IMG/VR virus record: IMGVR_UViG_3300042896_000714
Location: 38,341 to 102,340 of that record
DNA length: 64,000 nt
Strand: one strand, 5' to 3'
DNA from: a virus
The notes under the pieces were generated by a model, which did not search any database, was not told the DNA's origin, and was given only the letters and a program-made list of their open reading frames with translations. The position numbers were made by a program, and so were the translations under genes. Below are positions 26,968-47,516 of this stretch, piece by piece (position 1 is the stretch's first letter; every line of letters starts with the position of its first letter).

Positions 26968-28428
26968 TTATGTGTGAGTTGCTTGATTAGTGTACGCATC
27001 GAAGTATTCCCGTTTGCATCTATCAAAAAATGCAGTTAGTTGGGGGAAGGTTTTTAAAAAATTAGAACCAGTTCGTCGATCTTGTTCGATAATGAATAGA
27101 TAAAAGTCGTGACGCGATGTTACATTTTCATCACTAGATGGGTCTTCTGCTTTTATAACATTTAATAATCTGTTTAATCCGTCAATTTCATGTGGATAAA
27201 ATCCGTCATGATACTCTACAGTCTTATATGTGGCTACATTAGTTTCAGCCCATTGCACTGTAGCCGCTAACATTTCTATCATGCCATTATCAGCAATTAA
27301 CGCACTTAAATATCTGGGATATCGCAAATACGGAAAATCTAAAGATACCCCACGAAGTGAATCAGTCCTTGAAGGGGCAGAGGCACTGCGTCGAATTGCT
27401 AACATATCATTTAAAAAATACTTAAAATTTGGAATGCTCAACAAGTTAAAGGTACACATAATCGTAACATCAATACTTGGGTATCTAAGAACTAAATTCC
27501 ATAAATTATAGTACCATTTTTTGTAATCTAAACCAACTCTAATGTACTCAGCATGTTCTCCAAATGTATCGCAACTAGTAAAAATCTGTAGACGCTTTAC
27601 TAGACCTCTATCTTTAATAGTTTGACATTTTTCAAAGAATTCATCTAAGATTTTTTGATCAACTCCCAAATTTGTATTAATCGCTAAATTTAATTCAGGA
27701 TTTGGATTTGCAATAATCCAATCTAAAGTTCTAAATGTTTCCTTACTAAGAAGCGGCTCGCCACCAGTAATACGAAATACCTTTAGTTTAGGGTATAATT
27801 CAGGCCACCATTTCCACCATGCTTCAATATATGGATTATAGTCCTTATTGGGGATTGGCATTTTACCAACAGATTTTAACCAGGTGATATCATGTAAAGT
27901 GTCTTTGCTTAATTTTAGAGGGCCGTGCCTAACTGCTTGTTGCATTAAAACAGAGCTAGTTTCTGGAAAACAATAAGTACATCCGAAATTGCAGACGTTA
28001 CTGAAGCTAACCTCTACATAACTAGGTATGACATCAGCATCCCATGGCATCTCTGCCGAAGATTTTAAATACGGCACACCCCAAGTAGAATCTGCACTTT
28101 TCTTAATTCTATCGCTAAAATGCAACTCTTCATTCCCCTTGGCATCCTCAACCCGCCAACAGTAGTCGCATTCTGCTGGCCGCACGCCTTCCAACATTAA
28201 CTTCCGTTGTGTTTTTTTAAACTGCGTATTGTGTAATGCACTGGGATTTACTGAAATTTCAGAGATAGGAATTGCGTGTGACACTGGATGGTGACAACTA
28301 TGAGTTTGCCCCGTTTGCAAGTGTATTGTAACTTGCTGCCACTTTGCAACGCAGTATGATGGACTTACTTTATTCAATTCAGCATTTGTTGCTACTAATC
28401 TTTTGAAAAACGAGTTATTGTTAGGCAT
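26968..28428 (-). CDS. Radical SAM protein with N-terminal SPASM/twitch-like domain
   Basis: YCVAKW..SCHH..ECDYCW N-domain; CNFGCTYC; ITGGEP. Confidence 0.9.
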   Translation of the reverse strand: MPNNNSFFKRLVATNAELNKVSPSYCVAKWQQVTIHLQTGQTHSCHHPVSHAIPISEISVNPSALHNTQFKKTQRKLMLEGVRPAECDYCWRVEDAKGNEELHFSDRIKKSADSTWGVPYLKSSAEMPWDADVIPSYVEVSFSNVCNFGCTYCFPETSSVLMQQAVRHGPLKLSKDTLHDITWLKSVGKMPIPNKDYNPYIEAWWKWWPELYPKLKVFRITGGEPLLSKETFRTLDWIIANPNPELNLAINTNLGVDQKILDEFFEKCQTIKDRGLVKRLQIFTSCDTFGEHAEYIRVGLDYKKWYYNLWNLVLRYPSIDVTIMCTFNLLSIPNFKYFLNDMLAIRRSASAPSRTDSLRGVSLDFPYLRYPRYLSALIADNGMIEMLAATVQWAETNVATYKTVEYHDGFYPHEIDGLNRLLNVIKAEDPSSDENVTSRHDFYLFIIEQDRRTGSNFLKTFPQLTAFFDRCKREYFDAYTNQATHT

Positions 28429-28443
28429 TAAATATGTTATCCA

Positions 28444-28980
28444 TTAGGTCCAAAGAGAATCACGTATTTTAATCAAACGGATCATCATGTCTTCATCTTC
28501 TTGTGTATATTGTTCTTCAATCTTATGAAGGATATCAAGAACAACCCTGCTTTCGTTACGCTCTTCCTCGCTTCTATCTTCAAACAACGACATAACACCG
28601 CCATCTGGATCAGCCAGCCTACGCTTTTCATATATTGCAGACCAACCGCTTGCATCATGTGGGTCTGGTCGTTTTGGATAAACTTCAGTCCACCAAGTGT
28701 ATAGCTCGAGCATTTCAATTGCAGCCAGTGCTTGCCTAGTTGGCTTGCCACGATCTGCATGCCCTTCCTCAAGCCAATCATTATTATTCAAAGTTGCAGC
28801 CCACTTAAGGTGATCTATTCCTGCTTGTGGCGACCGCCATGTGCGCCAGCGGAACCATCCCGTTGCCCAGAACGGTGGCGCATATTTTTCACTAGCTTCT
28901 GTTCTTGGGAACATTTTATACCTAAATTTGTTGCATTCAGAAGGTCGATTGACTATTTTATTTAAAAGTTTAAAAAACAT
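28444..28980 (-). CDS. Hypothetical protein; probable C-terminal half of a split gene
   Basis: W-rich sequence (KYAPPFWATGWFRWRTW) preceded by a low-GC leader MFFKLLNKIVN...; own promoter at 29006-29034. Confidence 0.65.
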   Translation of the reverse strand: MFFKLLNKIVNRPSECNKFRYKMFPRTEASEKYAPPFWATGWFRWRTWRSPQAGIDHLKWAATLNNNDWLEEGHADRGKPTRQALAAIEMLELYTWWTEVYPKRPDPHDASGWSAIYEKRRLADPDGGVMSLFEDRSEEERNESRVVLDILHKIEEQYTQEDEDMMIRLIKIRDSLWT

Positions 28981-29005
28981 AAAATTCTCTTTTTGTATAA
29001 ATATA

Positions 29006-29034
29006 AGTATAACACCAGTTATGTTATAAGTCAA
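29006..29034 (-). promoter_or_regulatory. sigma70-type promoter inside the endonuclease insertion
   Basis: TTGACT-17-TATACT with TATAACA/TGTTATA inverted repeat; back-to-back with plus-strand TATAAATA at 28996-29003. Confidence 0.7.
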
Positions 29035-29099
29035 GAAAAATGTTCTTCGCGGATCTGAGAAATCCCAAGAACTCTAACAGTTTAAAAGGAACTATCAGC

Positions 29100-29885
29100 A
29101 TGATTATTTATCTTTACGTCAAAACGCACAACGTAACCGGATTAAAATATCTCGGAAAAACATCAGCAAGCAATCCACATACATATCGCGGTTCTGGAAC
29201 ATATTGGAATGCACATTTACGAATTCACGGATATAATTATTCAACCGAAATATTAAGAGAATGCTCATCTAAATTAGAAGTACAAAGGTTTGGGATATAT
29301 TACAGTGAGTTATGGAATATAGTAGCAGCAACAGACGCTAACGGAAAAAAGATTTGGGCAAACTTAAAACCTGAATCAGGAGACGGTGGTTGTCAACCTC
29401 TTGAAAGCATTGAGAAGATGAAAAATACCAAAAAGTTAAATGGAACGGAAAATAGAAATCCAATGATATCAAGTAAGATGGTCGCAAGTAAAAAGAAAAA
29501 CGGAACCCTTAACGGTAATACACTGCAATCCATTGCTAAAGGTATAGCAACTAAGAAAGCTAATGGAACTGATAAAATGTCATCTAAAACTAAATTAAAA
29601 TTATCAAGTGTCAAAACCGGATGTATTGGAAGGAAATTTTCAGCAGAGGATAAAGCAGCCCATTCAATAAGATTAACTGGTCATAAAAAACATAATGTGC
29701 TGGTTAGTAGATTAGAGGACCGAAAAGTAATGACGTTATGCAGCTTTACTAGATGGTGCAACCAATCATACACTCGACCAACCCATATTGGGCCTTATAA
29801 AAAAGTAGTATCTCGGTTAGTTGATCGCAGGGCAATGACACTTGGCAAGTTCAGTCAATGGTCGTCTGCTTTTCCTTCAGACTGA
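29100..29885 (+). mobile_element. Free-standing GIY-YIG-like (Seg-type) homing endonuclease
   Basis: IYLYVKTHNVTGLKYLGKT..Y.GSG..W, WANLKPESGDGG, NUMOD-like basic repeats, duplicated VSRL.DR..MTL..F..W; antisense to neighbours; AAGGA RBS before ATG 29100. Confidence 0.8.
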
Positions 29886-30298
29886 CACTTACTGCATGAG
29901 CATGTTATTGTTGATGACCATGCTGTTGTACTCCATGCAGTTTCTATTTCAATGAAATCAACAAGCTCATTAAATAAGCAAGGTAAAAACCGATTACCAA
30001 CATCGCGCCAATCTCCAGGAGCAATATCACGAGAATGGGCAGTAAGAGAATGAGTTCTTGTAACCCAGCGGTTATTGATATAATACTTGACATCATAAAT
30101 TTTACGAACAGGATATGTTACAAAATCTTGCAAGTCGCCAAGGAATTCCTCAGCTAACCAGAAACGAAATGGATGAGATTCTTTTGAAGCTTTATCCCAC
30201 TCGTACCATTCTTTGCTAGTTCCAGAACCAATTTTTTTAGTGCCACGAAGCCAATCAGCAAACTTGCCGCAGGACCAGTAGCGTATGTGTTGTGCCAT
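29855..30298 (-). CDS. Hypothetical protein; probable N-terminal half of a split gene
   Basis: W-rich ORF with AAGGAG RBS; the tail after ETAWSTTAWS reads into the insertion and stops inside the endonuclease 3' end. Confidence 0.7.
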   Translation of the reverse strand: MAQHIRYWSCGKFADWLRGTKKIGSGTSKEWYEWDKASKESHPFRFWLAEEFLGDLQDFVTYPVRKIYDVKYYINNRWVTRTHSLTAHSRDIAPGDWRDVGNRFLPCLFNELVDFIEIETAWSTTAWSSTITCSCSKCQSEGKADDH

Positions 30299-30326
30299 GA
30301 TATTTCTCCTTAGTGTCTATGTAACT

Positions 30327-30355
30327 ATTATAATGGCTTTTAGTATAAGTGTCAA
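30327..30355 (-). promoter_or_regulatory. Consensus sigma70 promoter
   Basis: TTGACA-17-TATAAT. Confidence 0.85.
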
Positions 30356-30453
30356 GTGATAAATAAAAATGCAGTAAGGATAAATGTTGGACCATTTATC
30401 CAACCTAGGGTAACTTAGGCTGTCCTGCAATACTATTTATAGGGGTAACAATT

Positions 30454-31215
30454 ATGAGTATAAAATGTCCTGGATGCGGATCCGAATTACAACAACTTAC
30501 TAACTCACATATCAAAGCCAAACATCCTGAGTTTGTTTCAGTTAGTGACTTCAAAAATCATTATCAGCTAACTACATTATGGTCTGAAGGCGTAAAGGAA
30601 AAATTTATCGATGTTAGAACTGGGGTGCCAACTGGTAAGCATGTTATGACCGACAAGTATTATGATGCAATGAAGAAACGTGGCAATGATTTTTCTGGAA
30701 GGGATCATTGGAATTATGGTAATATAACATCACAATCAGTCAAAGACAAAATAGCTGTAGGTATAACTACTAGTGAAAAATATGCAAAATCGATATCTCG
30801 GTGGTATAATGATAACGATTATAGGGAATATAGAATGGGGATAATCAATAATCAAGTAATACCAAAAGGTCTATTAACTCGGGCTGCGAGAGGTCAAATA
30901 ACACGATTTGAAGATAAACCTAAATTTGCACAATATTGTATTTTAGTAAACCGGATTACGCAAAAATCCCTTAACTTGCACAAAGAGTATATTGATCCCA
31001 ACCATGTTCTGCATTCGGATAATTATACGATTGATCATAAATTTTCTAAATTTGAAGGGTTTGCTCAAAATATCCCACCTGAAGTTATTGGCAGCAAATG
31101 GAATTTAGAGCCACTACTAAGGGTTGATAATTCGTCTAAAAGAACCAAATGCTCTATAACAATAGAAGCATTACTCCAGGCATTTAATTCTGATCAATTG
31201 ATTTGTCAAACCTAA
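30454..31215 (+). mobile_element. Putative HNH-family homing endonuclease
   Basis: N-terminal CPGC..H...H Zn finger, G..HWNYG NUMOD3-like motif, C-terminal IDHKFS...NLEPL...NSSK; antisense insertion; TAAATA 30360-30365. Confidence 0.7.
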
Positions 31216-32599
31216 ATTTAAGAAATCTCGGAAACCGCAAACTATAAGTATCGCTGGAATCAGATTTAGTCACTGCATCTGCTTTGATTTCAGCAATCTG
31301 ACCAACAACTGTGTCCCCACTTGGTTGTTCAGTATAAGTAACCCACTTGCTGCCAACTTTCTTTTTCCATGTTACTGGCTTTCCAGTATAATCCGCCCAA
31401 AGTTTTGAACGAAGTTGGATTGAATAACCACCGCCAACATTTACTCTTATTTTGCGCCCTTGATCGATTCCCTCACACACTAACGCACCAAGAGACCCTT
31501 TGAATTTGCTATCAGGCTTGCCTTCTTCAACATCAACAACTTTAAGGTCCATTGTCAAGAAGGGTTTCATTTTTAACCAGTTTTTGCTACGTTTGCATTC
31601 GTAAATTGCTTCTGGATCTTTAAGCATGATACCTTCAGCTTTTGCGTCAAGTGCAGCTTTATTCACTTCAAGTAGCCGATCACGACCTGCTTGCGTATCC
31701 AAGTCAACAATTTCGTAACCAAGCACTGCCACATTAGGCATATCATCAGCGTGTTTATTATACCAGTTGTGCAGCATTTCCAAACGATGTTTTTGTTTGG
31801 ATTTACACACCCCAGCTTGAAATTCCTTAAGTGTCATAATGTCAATTAAATTAAGCACTGCGTCATCAGTCTGGATGTCAGTCTTACGACGTGACTGCTT
31901 CATCAAATCTTGAAAGTTTTTGCTCATTACTTCAGCATCAAACACCATGGCTTCTTCAAGATTGCTAGCAATAATTACTTTAGCAATCTGTTCTTTAATC
32001 ATTGTAAAGTTTAACAATTCCTTACCGTTACGGGAGAATTGATCCACTTTGCCATTTGGATATGCAATAGTTAAGGTGCGCATTCCATCAAGCTTAGTGT
32101 CAAGAATCTTTTTACCTTGTAATTCAGATTCGTCAACATTGCCTTCGTCATCAACACAATCTTTGGCAAGTTGACATTCAAATACTGTGATTGCAAACTG
32201 CGGGAATTTCTTCTCGCAAACACGATTAATAGTGCTTTCAGAAAAGCCAGCTTTCATATCTTTGATAAGAATCAAACGGTACCAACCGTTCCATTGTTCT
32301 TTAGTTGCTTGATTGACTAGTAATAATACGGCGTCCCGAGCAGCATGACCTGTGAGGTCACGATTTCGTAATAGGCTAGCAGTACGATTAAAACTATCCC
32401 AATCCAGGCCAGGACCATCTTCATTAAGTTTCTCCGGTATTTGTTTTACACCAAATGTCACAGTTGCATCGTATGCAAGTCGAACACCTTCAAAAAACAC
32501 GGTGTTGTTTGCCATTGCTTCTTGAAGCACAATTGCTTCTTTAGCTAAGCGCGAATTGTCTACTTCTATAGCAGCAATAATTTTCCAAGGTTGATTCAT
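31184..32599 (-). CDS. ATP-dependent DNA ligase
   Basis: KLDGMR adenylation motif, FSRNGK, DAEV, EGIMLK, WLKMKP, SLRFPRF. Confidence 0.95.
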   Translation of the reverse strand: MNQPWKIIAAIEVDNSRLAKEAIVLQEAMANNTVFFEGVRLAYDATVTFGVKQIPEKLNEDGPGLDWDSFNRTASLLRNRDLTGHAARDAVLLLVNQATKEQWNGWYRLILIKDMKAGFSESTINRVCEKKFPQFAITVFECQLAKDCVDDEGNVDESELQGKKILDTKLDGMRTLTIAYPNGKVDQFSRNGKELLNFTMIKEQIAKVIIASNLEEAMVFDAEVMSKNFQDLMKQSRRKTDIQTDDAVLNLIDIMTLKEFQAGVCKSKQKHRLEMLHNWYNKHADDMPNVAVLGYEIVDLDTQAGRDRLLEVNKAALDAKAEGIMLKDPEAIYECKRSKNWLKMKPFLTMDLKVVDVEEGKPDSKFKGSLGALVCEGIDQGRKIRVNVGGGYSIQLRSKLWADYTGKPVTWKKKVGSKWVTYTEQPSGDTVVGQIAEIKADAVTKSDSSDTYSLRFPRFLKFRFDKSIDQN

Positions 32600-37956: not shown

Positions 37957-38955
37957 ATGCAATTCTCCTCCATACCATTTGATAAAATCACACGCTTCGG
38001 CCAGCAAACAATGCTTAACCGACCGCTGTTCTCAACTAGCTGGATACTAGGCAGGTTCTGCAATTATAACTGTTCATACTGTTGGCCGTATGCAAGATCT
38101 GACACTCTTGATTATCAACCATTGGACTTGTATAAAACCACAGTTTCTGAGATTAAAAGACAAGCTAGGATAAATGGCTTTACTGAATTTCATTGGTCAT
38201 TCAGCGGCGGTGAACCCACTGCATACAAACATCTACTAGAGCTAACTCGACATTTAGATGATGGGGCACAAACCCCGTATCAAAGTATTCATATGACTAC
38301 CAATTTATCGCCCAGCATTAACTGGTGGAAAAATTGGGCAGTATCAACGGAACTATTGCAACGCAGAAGCATCACTGCTAGCTTCCATGATGAGTTTGCT
38401 AAGGAGCAAGAGTTCGGTGATAAAATCATAGCATTGATGTATGAAGGTGTTCATGTTACGATTAATCAAGTCATGGTACCGGACACGTTTTATCAATTAT
38501 ACGATCGGCTTGAGCGATTTAAAAAGCGTGGAATTAACGTAACATTAAAGCCACAGAGCAACTCGACTGCGACTGCCATTGTAGACGGATATAGTGATGT
38601 CATGATGGGCTTGATGCGAGAATATGCAATACAACAATCGCACGGGATGGACTTGCATCAAATAGCATTATACGAAAAGGATGATACTGTACATTTTATT
38701 GATCAAGCAGAACGGTTTAATGCATTTGGGTTTAATAAATTCACCGATTGGGATTGTAATGCAGGATACCAGAGTGTTATAATAAAGGGTAACGAAATTA
38801 AACGCGGCTATAGTTGTCACGACATGCCTCTTGGTACATTAGATAGCGGATTTGAACTATTTAATAGCTCAAGAACATGTATAACCCCGAGCTGTGTAAG
38901 TTCAGCAGATTCAAAAATTCCCAAAAACAAACATGCACTTAATATCAATACATAA
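37957..38955 (+). CDS. Radical SAM protein with C-terminal Cys-rich (twitch-like) domain
   Basis: CNYNCSYC, FSGGEP, CNAG...C...CITPSC; TAAATA 5 nt before ATG. Confidence 0.92.
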   Translation: MQFSSIPFDKITRFGQQTMLNRPLFSTSWILGRFCNYNCSYCWPYARSDTLDYQPLDLYKTTVSEIKRQARINGFTEFHWSFSGGEPTAYKHLLELTRHLDDGAQTPYQSIHMTTNLSPSINWWKNWAVSTELLQRRSITASFHDEFAKEQEFGDKIIALMYEGVHVTINQVMVPDTFYQLYDRLERFKKRGINVTLKPQSNSTATAIVDGYSDVMMGLMREYAIQQSHGMDLHQIALYEKDDTVHFIDQAERFNAFGFNKFTDWDCNAGYQSVIIKGNEIKRGYSCHDMPLGTLDSGFELFNSSRTCITPSCVSSADSKIPKNKHALNINT

Positions 38956-40529: not shown

Positions 40530-41601
40530 TGAATTACAAACACTGCATGTCGAACTAACGTCTAAATGCCAAGCAAAATGCCCCATGTGCATCAGAAATT
40601 ACCATGGTGGAATTATAAACCCAAATTTAAAATTAACTGATATATCAATTGACGAATTTAAAAATATTATAACTTGCAAGGTTTTACAACAAATAAGAAA
40701 TATCTACTTTTGTGGCAATTATGGTGATCCCATAATGTCAAATCATTTAATTAGTATTGTCCAGTACTGCGTGGAAATCAATCCATCGATTGAAATAAGT
40801 ATACACACTAACGGCAGTGCAAGATCTAAAGAGTGGTGGGAGCTCCTTGCGCATTCCCTGCCAAAATTTCATAAAGTTCACTTTGCATTAGACGGGTTGC
40901 GTGATACACATCACTTATATCGAATTGGTACGCATTTTGAGACTATTATAGAAAATGCTAAGGCTTTTATAAAAGCTGGTGGGCTAGCAGAGTGGACATT
41001 CCTGTCGTTTGATCACAATCAACATCAAATAGAAGAGGCTCGGCAAATGGCAAAGCATCTCGGATTTTCTAATTTTTCGCACAAGGCAACTAGCCGATTT
41101 GTAGCTACACCATGGTTTGATGTTTTGGATAAAACTGGTAACGTAGTGTATAAAATTAAACCTGCTACTGAACATGTTTTGAATTATATCGCCCCTGAAG
41201 TAATCAAGTCATATCGTAACCACTTTGATAACGCAGAGATTAAATGTAGAATACAAACAGACAAAAGCTTGTATATTGATGCAAATAAAATGCTGTGGCC
41301 ATGCTGTTGGATTGGGGCTATACCGTATAGTTATTCTCGATCAACTGATTTAGTATATCAATATCAGCAAGATCAATCAATGGCATTAACTAAATTAATA
41401 AATGACATAGGTGGGTATGCTACTATAGATCTACATAACCACTCTATTGAAGACATATTAAACAACCCAATATGGCAGAACATTTGGCAGGAGTATTGGG
41501 CAAAAAAGGAGCCTGGCACTTGCATTCGAACTTGTGGGATTTTTCCTAAAAAAATACTAAGCAATTTTGATGAGCAATGGATTAACACCGAATCATTATA
41601 A
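40516..41601 (+). CDS. Radical SAM/SPASM protein
   Basis: CQAKCPMC, CGNYGDP, HTNG, YIDANKMLWPCC, CIRTC; start moved to MFQFNE. Confidence 0.9.
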   Translation: MFQFNELQTLHVELTSKCQAKCPMCIRNYHGGIINPNLKLTDISIDEFKNIITCKVLQQIRNIYFCGNYGDPIMSNHLISIVQYCVEINPSIEISIHTNGSARSKEWWELLAHSLPKFHKVHFALDGLRDTHHLYRIGTHFETIIENAKAFIKAGGLAEWTFLSFDHNQHQIEEARQMAKHLGFSNFSHKATSRFVATPWFDVLDKTGNVVYKIKPATEHVLNYIAPEVIKSYRNHFDNAEIKCRIQTDKSLYIDANKMLWPCCWIGAIPYSYSRSTDLVYQYQQDQSMALTKLINDIGGYATIDLHNHSIEDILNNPIWQNIWQEYWAKKEPGTCIRTCGIFPKKILSNFDEQWINTESL

Positions 41602-42882
41602 ATGTGTAAAAATAGTTTTATAATTTGTACCGCGGGTAACATCATACAATTCTAATACACGGAGTCGTTCAGTAATGACCTCATCATAGTCATCTGGAGT
41701 TTCTTTTATGTATTCAATAATCGAAGCTAGTTGTTCTATCGCAGTAGGAGATTCATGTAAAATTGTAAGATCTTGCGTTTTTAAAAAAATTTCAATTCGA
41801 TCAGTAATAGTTGCGCGTTGGATTTTATTCAAATATCTTATAGAAAAATAATTAGGATCGTTAACTAAATTAACCTGTATGTGCAATGGTTCGTTGTATT
41901 GCTGTCTAATGCGTTCCCAAGAAGTGAATATAACTTCAAAATCAAATATATTAAAAATACTCCATGTAGTGGATAGTTTCTTTGTTATGTGTTTAAAGTC
42001 AAATACTGCGTGTAAATTTTTTTGAAATGTTTCATACACTGCCGGATATCGAATAAATTCAAATTTTTCTGGATCAACATGATCATAACTAATATATAAG
42101 TCAGTATGTTTAAATTTATTAAGATGTGTGAATACACGTCTATTGATTGCTGAAAGATTAGTAATGATAGTTAGTGAAATTGTTTCATTATATTGATTTT
42201 CAATGCAGTCTTCTAGTATTGCTGTAGTAAATGGATTAATCAATGGTTCACCACCCACTAATGATAGAAATTTTGCCGTTTTAAGACATGGCCTTAAATT
42301 ATTAATTGATTGCATAATATCAAGTATGTCTGATCTAAAATTTTGAGAATTTAAATCAAAGGATGCAACATGTGTTTCCCACTTAACTGCCATTGAAGGC
42401 AAGGAAATACCTTGAGATTTCCATGTATTAATTTCTTCTTGATGTAAACTGCTTGCACCAGCATAACACATAATACATTTTAAATTACACAATGTTCCTA
42501 TTTTTAAATCAACATCGACAGGTAACGATGATATTGTACCAGCATTACTAATGGCGTCTTGTATATATGAATCGTACGATTCATAAGATGACATATGTTG
42601 CTCATTATTTAAATTTCTTGGAGAATACATACCGTTTTCTTCTTGAGTTTTGCAATGAGCACAGTTAGATGGCCACTTGCCATCTAACATATCATTTCTG
42701 ATGGATTTGTAAGAATCTGAATTCCATACTTCGATAATAGAATTAGCACGAACATTGAATGTGATATTATTCGTATCCGTAATTGGCGTTAGTGATTGAC
42801 AACATACTCTGTAGGTTCCGTTGTTTAGCGTTGATATGTGTGTAAACGGTAATACACAGAAGGTTGGATATTTCTTTAGCAT
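41596..42882 (-). CDS. Radical SAM protein with N-terminal SPASM/twitch-like domain
   Basis: FCVLPF..VCC..NCAHC; CNLKCIMC; VGGEP. Confidence 0.92.
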   Translation of the reverse strand: MLKKYPTFCVLPFTHISTLNNGTYRVCCQSLTPITDTNNITFNVRANSIIEVWNSDSYKSIRNDMLDGKWPSNCAHCKTQEENGMYSPRNLNNEQHMSSYESYDSYIQDAISNAGTISSLPVDVDLKIGTLCNLKCIMCYAGASSLHQEEINTWKSQGISLPSMAVKWETHVASFDLNSQNFRSDILDIMQSINNLRPCLKTAKFLSLVGGEPLINPFTTAILEDCIENQYNETISLTIITNLSAINRRVFTHLNKFKHTDLYISYDHVDPEKFEFIRYPAVYETFQKNLHAVFDFKHITKKLSTTWSIFNIFDFEVIFTSWERIRQQYNEPLHIQVNLVNDPNYFSIRYLNKIQRATITDRIEIFLKTQDLTILHESPTAIEQLASIIEYIKETPDDYDEVITERLRVLELYDVTRGTNYKTIFTHL

Positions 42883-42918: not shown

Positions 42919-44343
42919 ATGAAAAAAATAGAAAAAGTTTATTGGTTACGCCCAATCGACTCGCAATTAGGAAAATGGCAGCAGCAAATTACTGACATTG
43001 CGAAATCGCCATCGTTTTGCGTGCTTCCTTGGATACACCTTGCTACGCGACCGAATGGCGATATGCGAATTTGTTGTGTTGCTAATGCAAGCGGTGCAGA
43101 GTCTGGTGACTATACTGTTGGTTTAGTGAAAAAAGAAAACGGAAGTCCTGCAAATTTTGGTTCTGACTTGCCTACTGAAGCATTTAATAGCAGTTACATG
43201 AAATCTGTACGTAAAACTATGATAGATGGCAATGTTCCGGCAAGTTGCCTTAAGTGCTATGAAGAAGAGGCGCAAGGAATTGCAAGTAAACGGATATGGG
43301 AAACTGGCACATGGCATTACGATGGTATTAATATTCCGGAATTAATTGCAAACACATCTGATGATGGTGAAGTACCTTACAAATTGGAGTATTTAGATCT
43401 TAGGTTAGGGCATACTTGCAATTTAAAGTGTATTATGTGTAGTCCCCATGATAGCAGTAAATGGGTGGCCGATCATAAAAAAGTATTTCCAATTTTTAAA
43501 AGTGATGTAATAAAAAAACAAATGTCATGGGATCGCAAAAATTTCAATAATTTTTGGCATGAAAATCCAGAGTTTTGGCGAGAAATATACGATCAAATTC
43601 CTAACTTAAAGCAACTCTACTTCGCCGGCGGTGAACCATTAATGATTCGAGAACACACATTGTTTTTAGAAGAGATTATTAAACGGGGATATGCTAGTAA
43701 AATTTCGTTACGGTATAATACAAATGGACTTTTGATCGACGATAGTATCATCGCCATTTGGAGTCAATTTCGCAAAGTTAAAGTCGGAGTAAGTTTAGAT
43801 GGAATGGGTGACCGTGTACACTACATTAGATATCCGACTAACTGGGAAATAGTGAAAGCCAATTTATGGAAACTGGATAATACACCTGACAATATACATT
43901 GTAATATTGCATTAGCAGTTCAAAATTTAAACATCAAGCATATACCGGAATTTATTAAATGGAAAGTGTCTAGTGGCTTTAAAAAATTAAACTTTGAAAA
44001 AAATGTTGCAGGCCAAACAAATGGCGGTGGATTGATAGGTGTACATTTGTTGTGGATTCCGACATGGTTAAGTCTTAGGGTCCTTCCTAAAGAAGACAAG
44101 GATGAAGTGCATCAATTATTTAATGATTTAAAAGATTGGTTATGGCTTAATTACACACAAGATGTTGAATTTTGGGAAACTAACCCATATGGGTGGAAAA
44201 GGTGGGAAGGTATTTTAGAATGGATGGATGCTGAGGATCATTCAAATTTATTACCCGATTTTCGTGATTATATATCAACAATGGATGCTCATCGAGGAAC
44301 GGATTTTAAAAAAACATTCCCAGAGATTGCGCATTTACTCTAA
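42919..44343 (+). CDS. Radical SAM protein with N-terminal SPASM/twitch-like domain
   Basis: FCVLPW..ICC..SCLKC; CNLKCIMC; AGGEP; YNTNG. Confidence 0.93.
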   Translation: MKKIEKVYWLRPIDSQLGKWQQQITDIAKSPSFCVLPWIHLATRPNGDMRICCVANASGAESGDYTVGLVKKENGSPANFGSDLPTEAFNSSYMKSVRKTMIDGNVPASCLKCYEEEAQGIASKRIWETGTWHYDGINIPELIANTSDDGEVPYKLEYLDLRLGHTCNLKCIMCSPHDSSKWVADHKKVFPIFKSDVIKKQMSWDRKNFNNFWHENPEFWREIYDQIPNLKQLYFAGGEPLMIREHTLFLEEIIKRGYASKISLRYNTNGLLIDDSIIAIWSQFRKVKVGVSLDGMGDRVHYIRYPTNWEIVKANLWKLDNTPDNIHCNIALAVQNLNIKHIPEFIKWKVSSGFKKLNFEKNVAGQTNGGGLIGVHLLWIPTWLSLRVLPKEDKDEVHQLFNDLKDWLWLNYTQDVEFWETNPYGWKRWEGILEWMDAEDHSNLLPDFRDYISTMDAHRGTDFKKTFPEIAHLL

Positions 44344-45360: not shown

Positions 45361-46252
45361 TATTAGATTTCTTAAATTTAGTTAATGGTATGTCAGCGGC
45401 ACATGTACAGTAATTTCGATTGCATACTACTGGACTAGTAGGTGCATTAAAAGATCCTTGATATATATTGCCCAAGCTATCTCCAACTCGGCAAGTAGCT
45501 CGATGCACATCGCCGTCCCAATTAATCATTAAACTTTCAATGCCGGCATTGCAAGTCCAACCGTTGTACTTATTCATATGTAATTTAATTATGTCATTGG
45601 CGTGCATTATAGTATCTGCATCAATTACACAATTGCCCTGTACTGTAGTGTCATGCTCTTTAATCCACGTCAAGTCGTCAGGATTGTATCGCATGTCATC
45701 AAATAAGTCATGATCCCCTTCAGTCCAGCGTATGCGTCTAACTGTCGTCGGCGTGCCATCAGCGCCAAGTGCCCCGTGCACAGCTTTTAACTCTGCTATA
45801 TGATCAGCGTGTGCCATTAGTTGTGCTATAACCTTAATACTACTCATTGAGCCAACCTTCATTAGCGTATTACAAACACGCATCCAGTCATATTCAAAGT
45901 GTACGCTGCCTACCAATTGTTCTACTGGGAGGCTAATGTAAAACTCCGCAGGCAACGTTCCGTTAGTTGTTACACTAATCCAATTAATTCCCACGTGTTT
46001 GCAGTACATTAATAGTTCACGGAACTTAGGGTGTACAGTAGGTTCACCTCCTGTAAAACTAAGACGAATCGGCTTGCCTAGTGTTACGAGGTTATCCACT
46101 GCCAATTTAAGAATGTTTATATCTGTATGCGGGCTCGTGTTATCATGTATAGAAGAAGGACAATACGAACAACTGTAATTGCAACGCTTGCCAAGATTCC
46201 ATTCAACTTTAATGGAATTTTGATGAGGCCACCGGCTAGTTACGTTATACAT
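45353..46252 (-). CDS. Radical SAM protein with C-terminal Cys-rich domain
   Basis: CNYSCSYC, FTGGEP, TTNG, CNAG..DGDVHRATC..CNRNYCTC. Confidence 0.92.
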   Translation of the reverse strand: MYNVTSRWPHQNSIKVEWNLGKRCNYSCSYCPSSIHDNTSPHTDINILKLAVDNLVTLGKPIRLSFTGGEPTVHPKFRELLMYCKHVGINWISVTTNGTLPAEFYISLPVEQLVGSVHFEYDWMRVCNTLMKVGSMSSIKVIAQLMAHADHIAELKAVHGALGADGTPTTVRRIRWTEGDHDLFDDMRYNPDDLTWIKEHDTTVQGNCVIDADTIMHANDIIKLHMNKYNGWTCNAGIESLMINWDGDVHRATCRVGDSLGNIYQGSFNAPTSPVVCNRNYCTCAADIPLTKFKKSNNE

Positions 46253-47516
46253 ATGGTTTAAACTCTGGTGTTACATCTAAAAAACTTTGATTTCTAGTAA
46301 TATCTAGTCTGCGATTAAATTCTATACAGTCATTCCATTTCTCGCTTTGATCTCTTTGCAGATAGTTGATGTTATCTTGTATCTGACTCAGGGTGTACTC
46401 TAGTAGTTGTGGTTTTAACTTTATCAATTTAAAGTCTTTTATACGTAAACTAACTGATTGCAATCTTTTAATAGCTAAATCCCGTAATTCAAAAGGTAAT
46501 ACCTGTGCAGATAGCAACTTTGGATATTCTACACGATGTGAATGAAATATAATGCCCAAGTCATTGAGAAAGTACTCAATGATATCGCTTAAAATGAGAA
46601 CATTACTAACTTGTACGGTAACTGCCCCGACAATACGGCTAATATTTGGAATAGTTTGAATTTGTTTAATATTGTCGATGAGTGTTGCCCAACTAGCGTT
46701 ACCGCGGATATATTCATAGCTATCCCCGATACCGTCGATACTCACGTTGACTGCAACACTTTTAAATTTAGGCCAATATTCCCAAATAGTTCTGCTACCC
46801 TTTCCCAACATACTTAAATTAGTGGCATATTTAATTTCTATTTGGTGCCCATATGGTGCAAGCATATCCAAAATACGATAATGTTGTGGATCCATAAGCG
46901 GCTCGCCACCTGCAAATTCTACTCTTCTAAAATATGGCAGTAGTTTTTCTAAACTTTCCCACCATTTCGGATCGTTTTGAAATTTATCAAGAAATGGTCG
47001 GTTTTCTAAATTATGCTCTTCTACAATTGCATACATTATATTCCCTTCTTTTTTGTAAAAGTCCTTCACTTCGCCCCAGTCATTCCAGCTTGTGCTATCC
47101 ATCGGATGGCACATCCGACATTTTAGATTACACAAATTATTTAACTTTAATTCCATAGTAGGAATTTCAAACGGCATTGAAAAATCTGCTTGTAAGGAAT
47201 CTAGTGCGTTGGGATATAAGTTTATACGAGCTTCAGGAATCTTACCGGCAATGTGCCGCATACGTAAGCTTTCCACTCCTTGATCTTCTAAACTAAAACA
47301 TGGTTCACATTCTGGTGGTCGTGTGTTATTAAGAACTTGTTTTCGGATACGCTTCATTGTATCATTATTCCAAATTTCTTCTAACTTTTCTTTAGTAACA
47401 AATCCAACAGGGTGACTACGGCAACACGCACATATACCGCCATCTTCCCTGCTTGCTAATCCAGTAAATGGATGCATACAAAAAGTTTTACTTTGATTGA
47501 TCAATTGCCCACTCAC
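46245..47516 (-). CDS. Radical SAM protein with N-terminal SPASM/twitch-like domain (start uncertain, GTG or TTG)
   Basis: FCMHPF..ACC..ECEPC; CNLKCRMC; AGGEP. Confidence 0.92.
   Translation of the reverse strand: MSGQLINQSKTFCMHPFTGLASREDGGICACCRSHPVGFVTKEKLEEIWNNDTMKRIRKQVLNNTRPPECEPCFSLEDQGVESLRMRHIAGKIPEARINLYPNALDSLQADFSMPFEIPTMELKLNNLCNLKCRMCHPMDSTSWNDWGEVKDFYKKEGNIMYAIVEEHNLENRPFLDKFQNDPKWWESLEKLLPYFRRVEFAGGEPLMDPQHYRILDMLAPYGHQIEIKYATNLSMLGKGSRTIWEYWPKFKSVAVNVSIDGIGDSYEYIRGNASWATLIDNIKQIQTIPNISRIVGAVTVQVSNVLILSDIIEYFLNDLGIIFHSHRVEYPKLLSAQVLPFELRDLAIKRLQSVSLRIKDFKLIKLKPQLLEYTLSQIQDNINYLQRDQSEKWNDCIEFNRRLDITRNQSFLDVTPEFKPYV

Follow-up and report, generated by a model that had tools for sequence, protein, structure and literature searches.

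Has a single phage gene been cut in two by a homing endonuclease gene lying antisense to it, and if so, what has become of its halves? The locus that raises this question occupies positions 28,444 to 30,298 of a 64,000-nucleotide stretch of viral DNA (IMG/VR record IMGVR_UViG_3300042896_000714, positions 38,341 to 102,340), hereafter called the window. An earlier note, made from the sequence alone, described two tryptophan-rich open reading frames (ORFs) there, separated by an opposite-strand ORF, and proposed that they are the halves of one gene. Lake-water metagenomes contain window DNA, and its source is an uncultured phage. The IMG/VR record holding the window measures 102 kb, with a completeness estimate of 27%; related contigs extend to 320-353 kb, and for this reason we regard the source as an uncultured jumbo phage. 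We find that a conserved gene of this phage has been broken in two by a clean ~1.0-kb insertion, a result that we regard as secure. With moderate confidence, we read the locus as a genes-in-pieces case like nrdA/mobE of phage Aeh1, with an antisense nuclease of the GIY-YIG type. That the two halves are expressed separately and reassemble is about as probable.

A conserved phage gene is interrupted by a clean insertion

Both tryptophan-rich ORFs were present where the note had placed them. The first half of the gene (29855..30298, minus strand) encodes 147 amino acids (aa), of which residues 1-127/128 are native, whereas its final 19 codons and its stop derive from the insert. The second half lies downstream (28444..28980, minus strand; 178 aa from an ATG at 28980, with the ORF open to 29034) and is native from residue 26/28. 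Together, they represent a widely conserved family of ~280-aa proteins with thousands of members. A search with the 147-aa ORF, restricted to longer proteins, returned 4,251 homologues, and the best 120 of these are all 277-286 aa long. Of the contiguous homologues, P0001 (281 aa) is the best match; the first half aligns with it over residues 1-128 of both proteins at 83% identity, and the second half aligns from ...EKYAPPFW onward to residues ~134-281 at 58% identity (both by BLASTP). Exhaustive HMMER searching with the second half gave 845 relatives, mostly 260-290 aa long and aligned from ~residue 125 on; the second half corresponds to family residues ~129/131-281. Contiguous homologues spanning both halves, which the note had proposed to look for, therefore exist in large numbers. 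The opposite outcome that it had named, two separate genes in phages lacking the endonuclease, was not encountered: 63 of 63 IMG/VR loci carry the family gene uninterrupted. Neither half was matched by DNA or protein in the GenBank phage collection.

The boundaries of the interruption were located by comparison with 60 intact loci. DNA homology stops at 29918-29933 and resumes at 28900, which agrees with the break at ~29915 and the resumption at ~28900 read by the earlier note. At the codon level, native sequence runs to W127 (possibly S128) in the first half and starts again at E28 (possibly R26) of the second, in the frame of the ATG at 28980. Residues 1-128 of the first half and 26-178 of the second add up to 281, the length of intact relatives; therefore, the inserted element of ~1,009-1,018 bp (28900..29917, delimited by homology boundaries) replaced at most three codons, G-D/N-K, or <=9 bp of the intact gene. 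The GC content of the insert is 34.8%, versus 40.4% and 45.8% in the two halves.

At the right-hand junction, the last native codons (AGT ACA ACA GCA TGG TCA, encoding STTAWS; 29915-29932, minus strand) are followed by a similar 18-mer (TCA ACA ATA ACA TGC TCA, encoding STITCS; 29897-29914, minus strand), the two being identical at 12/18 positions as counted by eye. This pair may be a short target duplication or a microhomology from the insertion.

The insert encodes an antisense nuclease of predicted GIY-YIG fold

A plus-strand ORF (29040/29100..29885), antisense to the split gene, occupies most of the gap separating the two halves. The opposite-strand GIY-YIG-like ORF of the earlier note is thus real, though its start has moved: all 32 of the 32 nuclease homologues in viral contigs begin MIIYLYVK, with unconserved sequence upstream, and we therefore place the start at 29100 rather than at 29040. 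The resulting gene (29100..29885) encodes 261 aa behind an AAGGA ribosome-binding site (RBS) at 29086-29090.

Residues 1-95 form an N-terminal domain that AlphaFold (AF2) models as beta-beta-alpha-beta-alpha with predicted local distance difference test (pLDDT) values above 90. Among 48,161 PDB chains, the best fold match of this domain was the I-TevI catalytic domain (1ln0_A; Z 8.7, root mean square deviation 2.4 Å, 82/92 residues) and the second was the GIY-YIG restriction enzyme PD-T4-3 (Z 6.7). The top three Foldseek matches for the nuclease model were likewise all I-TevI, and the remaining structural matches were coiled-coil noise on the low-confidence C-terminal part. Relatives of the nuclease share the conserved 95-residue N-domain, followed by variable tails; among 21 of them, NUMOD3 is present in 12 (best 1.3e-16), and NUMOD1 and the I-TevI zinc finger in one each. 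One relative matches SegE_GIY-YIG (E 0.0057). The window nuclease itself matched no Pfam, NCBIfam or PHROG model (E<=0.1-1) and no PDB sequence, a search with the 21-member profile included. GIY-YIG catalysis involves two Tyr, an Arg, a Glu and an Asn. By sequence, residues Y4, Y17, N88, E92, H39 and K8/K16 are invariant in the 21 homologues; no invariant arginine stands at the start of helix 1 in these homologues, and the canonical GIY-YIG arginine is not evident. Because of the structure match and the domains found in its relatives, we accept the insert gene as a Seg-like free-standing endonuclease of predicted GIY-YIG fold, these gaps notwithstanding.

In the Seg-type GIY-YIG endonucleases of T4 and in I-TevI, a GIY-YIG catalytic fold occupies the N terminus, and the modular DNA-binding tail behind it varies. 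The window nuclease and its relatives resemble these enzymes in their conserved N-domain, swapped C-domains and patchy, mostly intergenic distribution. Unlike them, the window nuclease has no match to a curated model, no evident canonical arginine and a pair of ~30-aa repeats at its C terminus. These two copies (VLVSRLEDRKVMTLCSFTRW and KVVSRLVDRRAMTLGKFSQW) span residues ~200-261 (29700-29882, plus strand). The C-terminal half of the nuclease has a low-confidence fold and gave no domain match in the family-model scan, and for the repeat region neither a family match nor a relative in viral or JGI metagenome contigs turned up. This region may represent a DNA-binding module of a new kind.

Mobility is indicated by the varied contexts of nuclease homologues at 32 viral loci, and the conserved 5' end of the gene has high, multi-context coverage in the lake runs. 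At loci L068/L069 and L074/L075, related nuclease genes are intergenic and antisense, 500-600 bp downstream of an intact 280-aa gene, an intergenic setting being usual for elements of this kind. Their C-terminal domains differ from that of the window nuclease, so we take them to be cousins and not the same element. The nuclease of the window would presumably cleave uninterrupted alleles of co-infecting relatives and spread by recombinational repair, and the interrupted allele would be immune, its target being disrupted. Relatives that read through the site without the nuclease (...AWGDKEDR) were detected in run X4, and therefore potential recipient alleles co-occur.

A stretch of ~34 nt over the nuclease RBS and first codons (29072-29105, plus strand) is 94-97% identical in the otherwise unrelated cassettes of L071 (3134-3167) and L050 (2375-2407); only ~30 nt upstream of the nuclease start are common to other cassettes. 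In the lake runs, there is a spike in coverage, with many changes of context, just upstream of 29072-29105. This stretch may mark a boundary, conserved in the endonuclease family, for control or recombination. On the other side of the nuclease genes at L069 (3291-3875, minus strand) and L074 (3292-3876, minus strand) lies a 194-aa ORF that resembles DEDDh-type 3'-5' exonucleases by motifs identified by eye.

The insert supplies a stop to the first half and a start to the second

We propose that a ~1.0-kb GIY-YIG-type cassette entered, in antisense orientation, a loop codon after W127/S128 of a jumbo-phage gene and would thereby have turned one gene into two. For the first half, a perfect sigma70-type promoter match (TTGACA-17-TATAAT; 30327..30355, minus strand) and an AAGGAG RBS directly upstream of the gene are in place. 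The insert encodes its C-terminal tail, STITCSCSKCQSEGKADDH plus stop (29855..29914, minus strand); the stop itself, at 29855-29857, comes from the right end of the insert, and the tail and the 3' end of the nuclease gene overlap antisense by 31 bp (29855-29885).

For the second half, the insert contributes an N-terminal leader, MFFKLLNKIVNRPSECNKFRYKMFP[RT] (28900..28980, minus strand). Between its ATG and the nuclease start lies a divergent control region of 119 bp (28981..29099), within a stretch of 28.5% GC (28900-29099). The TTGACT-17-TATACT promoter and the low-GC leader reported by the earlier note were both located; the promoter-like site (29034..29006, minus strand) carries a TG extension and matches the consensus at 10/12 positions, and it remains putative. 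As the note had held, the insert supplies the start of the second half, since this site, the ATG and the leader are all insert-encoded. The RBS is AAGAG (28991-28987, minus strand), located 6 nt upstream of the ATG. A search for minus-strand terminators between the halves was negative, and read-through from the first-half promoter is therefore also possible. The first polypeptide would thus be made from the strong upstream sigma70-type promoter, and the second by read-through, from the insert's own promoter, or both.

Perfect TTGACA-17-TATAAT sites occur at six places in the window: 1699, 8488, 30355, 32658 and 62877 on the minus strand and 49120 on the plus strand. This number is far above chance in a phage of 38% GC. 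Host-type (sigma70) promoters are evidently used by the phage, to judge from these matches, and their number suggests that one gene class relies heavily on the host sigma70 holoenzyme. The sequence TATAAATA is found on the plus strand at 28996-29003, inside the control region; it is not enriched in the window (4 occurrences versus 9.9 expected). An RBS-sequestering hairpin upstream of the nuclease was considered and rejected, as folding there was no better than in shuffles (z -0.38).

The halves are unlikely to be rejoined by splicing

The earlier note called the insertion intron-less on the ground that the antisense ORF leaves no room for a ribozyme core. This argument from space was overstated: the nuclease ORF leaves 232 nt of the insert free, a length near that of a minimal group I intron. 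Moreover, joining S128 to R26 would preserve the frame and restore family length. Both points speak for an unrecognised self-splicing intron carrying the antisense nuclease in a loop, or for a split intein, either of which would restore a contiguous protein. However, an Rfam cmscan of 28000-30800 with permissive filters gave no match at E<=10 on either strand, folding of the 5' leader was no better than that of shuffles, and the leader is conserved as protein and Met-initiated in two alleles (see below). The insert-derived extensions, 19 aa in the tail and 25-27 aa in the leader, are far shorter than split-intein halves, and no intein or Hint domain was matched in either half. We therefore consider restoration by an intron or intein highly improbable. 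The word intron-less thus appears to stand, on evidence stronger than that of space: the lack of an Rfam match and the conservation of the leader as protein.

A second split allele carries a related leader

A 169-aa protein from a 111,911-bp ENA contig, P0131, begins MFKILNKLLGRPSECNKLKYMLFP. Its leader is identical to that of the window at 16/24 positions, versus ~41-43% identity in the remaining protein, and its C-half is intact with the family motifs retained. The nearest relatives of P0131 are intact 274-aa proteins (57% identity), and those of the window copy are the intact proteins P0001 and P0004. With the close relatives of P0131 included, an approximately unbiased (AU) test rejected a single split-allele clade (delta lnL 40.6, p 0.0075). 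Either the same site was entered on two occasions by related cassettes bearing the leader, or an old split has undergone several precise reversions. On either history, the leader is maintained as a protein.

The recurrence of leader-bearing alleles in two lineages could also mean that the gene was already two cistrons before the nuclease entered the intercistronic gap, as has been argued for gene 43 of Aeromonas phage 25, where a similar ambiguity is described for seg43(25) (PMC2988022). We judge such a prior split improbable at this locus. No two-gene, nuclease-free version exists among the 63 loci, and each split allele has contiguous proteins as its nearest relatives. The inspected short family proteins other than P0131 resemble contig-end or internal-Met fragments. 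In addition, the first-half tail is read antisense from nuclease coding sequence and so came in with the element.

Searches for further copies of the leader gave little. A protein search returned the window itself as the sole match, degenerate leader DNA patterns had no match in viral or metagenome contigs, and tblastn and blastn searches of all fetched loci and the 102-kb record of the phage found nothing convincing. A match to PNSCNKFKNK proved to be an antisense artefact within a membrane-protein gene. Derivation of the leader from the gene flanking the nuclease at L069/L074 was excluded, since the DEDDh-exonuclease-like ORF there has no similarity to it. The idea that the leader is a diverged duplicate of the native helix 106-128 was also unsupported (negative BLOSUM scores, rank 3-4, shuffle p 0.02-0.08).

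A more elaborate version of our reading, which we hold as doubtful, is that the cassette carries a portable repair kit, consisting of a stop-bearing tail and a promoter-RBS-ATG-leader, and was moved with it into the same site of divergent alleles; the Cys-rich tail and the leader Cys may then clasp the halves together. This would explain why the leader (16/24) is better conserved than the protein behind it (~41-43%) in separate lineages. If true, an antisense selfish element would offset its own damage without RNA or protein splicing.

The break falls within a helical bundle

For structural context, we turned to intact P0001, whose AlphaFold model (pLDDT 93.6; predicted template modeling score, pTM, 0.85) is all-helical. 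In this model, the break falls in a turn between helices 100-127 and 130-136. Weak fold matches consistently span residues 98-281 as one long helical bundle, to which the first half would thus add one helix and the second half the rest. The halves would then share a large interface, favorable for non-covalent complementation. Under the genes-in-pieces reading, the two polypeptides would re-associate non-covalently, and the tail, with its CxCxxC motif, and the leader, with its conserved Cys, might aid assembly as the extensions of NrdA-a/NrdA-b do in Aeh1, which is speculation. The break also marks a natural split point for fragment complementation. Searches for the function of the host protein in Pfam, PHROGs, NCBIfam, Foldseek PDB and ESM Atlas yielded viral hypotheticals only, and a wide structural search gave no known fold match, the best being BAR-like helical noise at Z 6.2.

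Conservation of the halves suggests continued selection

Joined, the halves keep 107 of the 110 columns with >=90% conservation across 38 intact genes, a figure inside the range spanned by intact members. Omega values (NG86) were ~0.13 for the N-half and 0.22 for the C-half, compared with 0.11 and 0.17 for intact pairs, and the C/N ratio of nonsynonymous divergence (dN) was 1.72 in the split copy versus 1.66 in intact genes. Divergence from 119 reference sequences is no greater for the split copy than for P0001, the intact protein closest to it. The same arrangement was also recovered from an independent lake study (run X2), in which contigs tile across it and one bridges the junction between leader and C-half. 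Nine differences from the window are listed in the C-half, of which six are synonymous and three conservative (D>A, I>L and T>S); assuming ~25% synonymous sites, a binomial estimate for this 6:3 bias is ~0.01. Together with the second split allele, the conserved columns, the absence of rate acceleration and the 6:3 bias point, indirectly, to selection on the halves and their reassembly in trans.

Several observations weigh against this reading, beginning with the nuclease, which has no family-model match and no evident canonical arginine. The RBS of the second half is weak, and 10/12 promoter matches are only weakly enriched in the window as a whole (46 versus 35.8 +/- 6.5 in shuffles), so that such a match counts for little by itself. 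Synonymous divergence (dS) is saturated against every fetched relative; thus, the conservation signal mostly predates the split, and a gene recently hit and now dead would look similar. Evidence from after the split consists of the nine differences in low-depth contigs, with three further differences unlisted. P0131 is known from its leader and second half only, and in a 30-row set without its close relatives the AU test did not reject a single clade (p 0.47). Finally, in the P0001 model the split lies inside a helical bundle and not at a domain boundary.

These points bear most directly on the main rival, that the insertion recently killed a dispensable gene, the two ORFs being undecayed remnants and the promoter, RBS and leader fortuitous. 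Saturated dS prevents dating of the split by conservation, and the weak RBS and 10/12 promoter of the second half suit such a history. Dispensability is possible, as the function searches gave viral hypotheticals only, and the cluster of the window has no close relatives in 5.8 billion proteins. However, the frames remain open over 147 and 178 codons with 107/110 conserved columns kept, rate acceleration is absent, and the strain from the independent sample has the same junction with mostly synonymous differences. In addition, P0131, from another lineage, has an intact C-half headed by a homologous leader that is better conserved (16/24). On balance, we regard recent inactivation as unlikely and retain the genes-in-pieces reading, under which an uncharacterised jumbo-phage family is probably important enough to stay functional after fracture.

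Comparison with other fractured phage genes

The Aeh1 arrangement is known as "genes in pieces" (Friedrich et al. 2007; Crona et al. 2010, PMC3045599). Intron-less and intein-less fracture by a homing endonuclease is represented by a handful of phage genes (Aeh1 nrdA, T4 39/60 and phage 25 gp43), among which nrdA alone has been dissected biochemically. In Aeh1 nrdA-a/mobE/nrdA-b, a free-standing endonuclease gene lies within a conserved gene, and tails derived from the insertion are essential for an active enzyme (PMC3045599). The note's choice of mobE and nrdA as precedent was therefore sound (PMC3045599, PMC2988022): as in Aeh1, there is no intron or intein at our locus, orthologues are contiguous, the halves lie in order, and both polypeptides carry tails. 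The two cases differ in the nuclease. That of Aeh1 is of the HNH type, overlaps the start of nrdA-b and is drawn right-facing between the halves (PMC3045599), whereas that of the window has a GIY-YIG fold, is antisense and overlaps the end of the first half, with the 119-bp divergent control region and its promoter-like site lying between it and the second half; the split gene of the window also belongs to an uncharacterised family. mobE is intergenic in T-even phages and intragenic in Aeh1 (PMC2988022), a pattern paralleled by the intergenic nucleases of L068/L069 and L074/L075 and the intragenic one of the window.

T4 gene 39/60 is split by mobA, and gene 43 of Aeromonas phage 25 is split with seg43(25) (PMC2988022). 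At these loci, as at ours, a free-standing seg/mob nuclease gene lies between two cistrons, and the phage 25 nuclease is likewise of the GIY-YIG type (segD-like). The T4 and phage 25 genes encode essential replication enzymes, and the role of the phage 25 nuclease in the split is ambiguous. In contrast to phage 25, the junction in the window is clean and the first-half tail is antisense nuclease sequence, from which we conclude that the break was made by the element. Phage and metagenome loci are also known at which an endonuclease gene (GIY-YIG or Vsr-like) separates two halves of a conserved gene whose split-intein parts trans-splice; these are the "fractured genes" of Dassa et al. (2009, PMC2677866). 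In the model of those authors, the invader brings the stop of the upstream half and the initiator Met of the downstream half (PMC2677866). The window fits this stop/start idea, but without inteins, with the nuclease on the opposite strand and with extensions of 19 and 27 aa. It differs from the known cases in the family of its nuclease, in the reversed orientation and in having a divergent control region from which the downstream half could be expressed; the recurrence of the leader in a second allele gives a hint that the element may carry the fix along with it.

Neighboring genes

In minus-strand order, the first gene of the region encodes an ATP-dependent DNA ligase (31184..32599, minus strand). 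Between it and the first half lies a second antisense nuclease-like ORF of 253 aa (30454-31215, plus strand), with weak matches to a phage FDXHR zinc-binding domain (E 0.004) and NUMOD3 (E 0.086), a match to PHROG 5104 and an HNH-like C terminus (...IDHKFS...N...N). Antisense homing-endonuclease-like genes thus flank the first half on both sides. Directly downstream of the second half is a gene for a twitch-domain radical S-adenosylmethionine (SAM) protein (26968..28428, minus strand; NF033640, E 1e-84), a conserved neighbor of the split gene. The window contains at least five radical SAM/SPASM proteins (26968-28428, 37957-38955, 41596-42882, 42919-44343 and 46245-47516). A radical SAM gene likewise follows the intact 280-aa gene at locus L020, and because the pairing recurs there, it may be functional.

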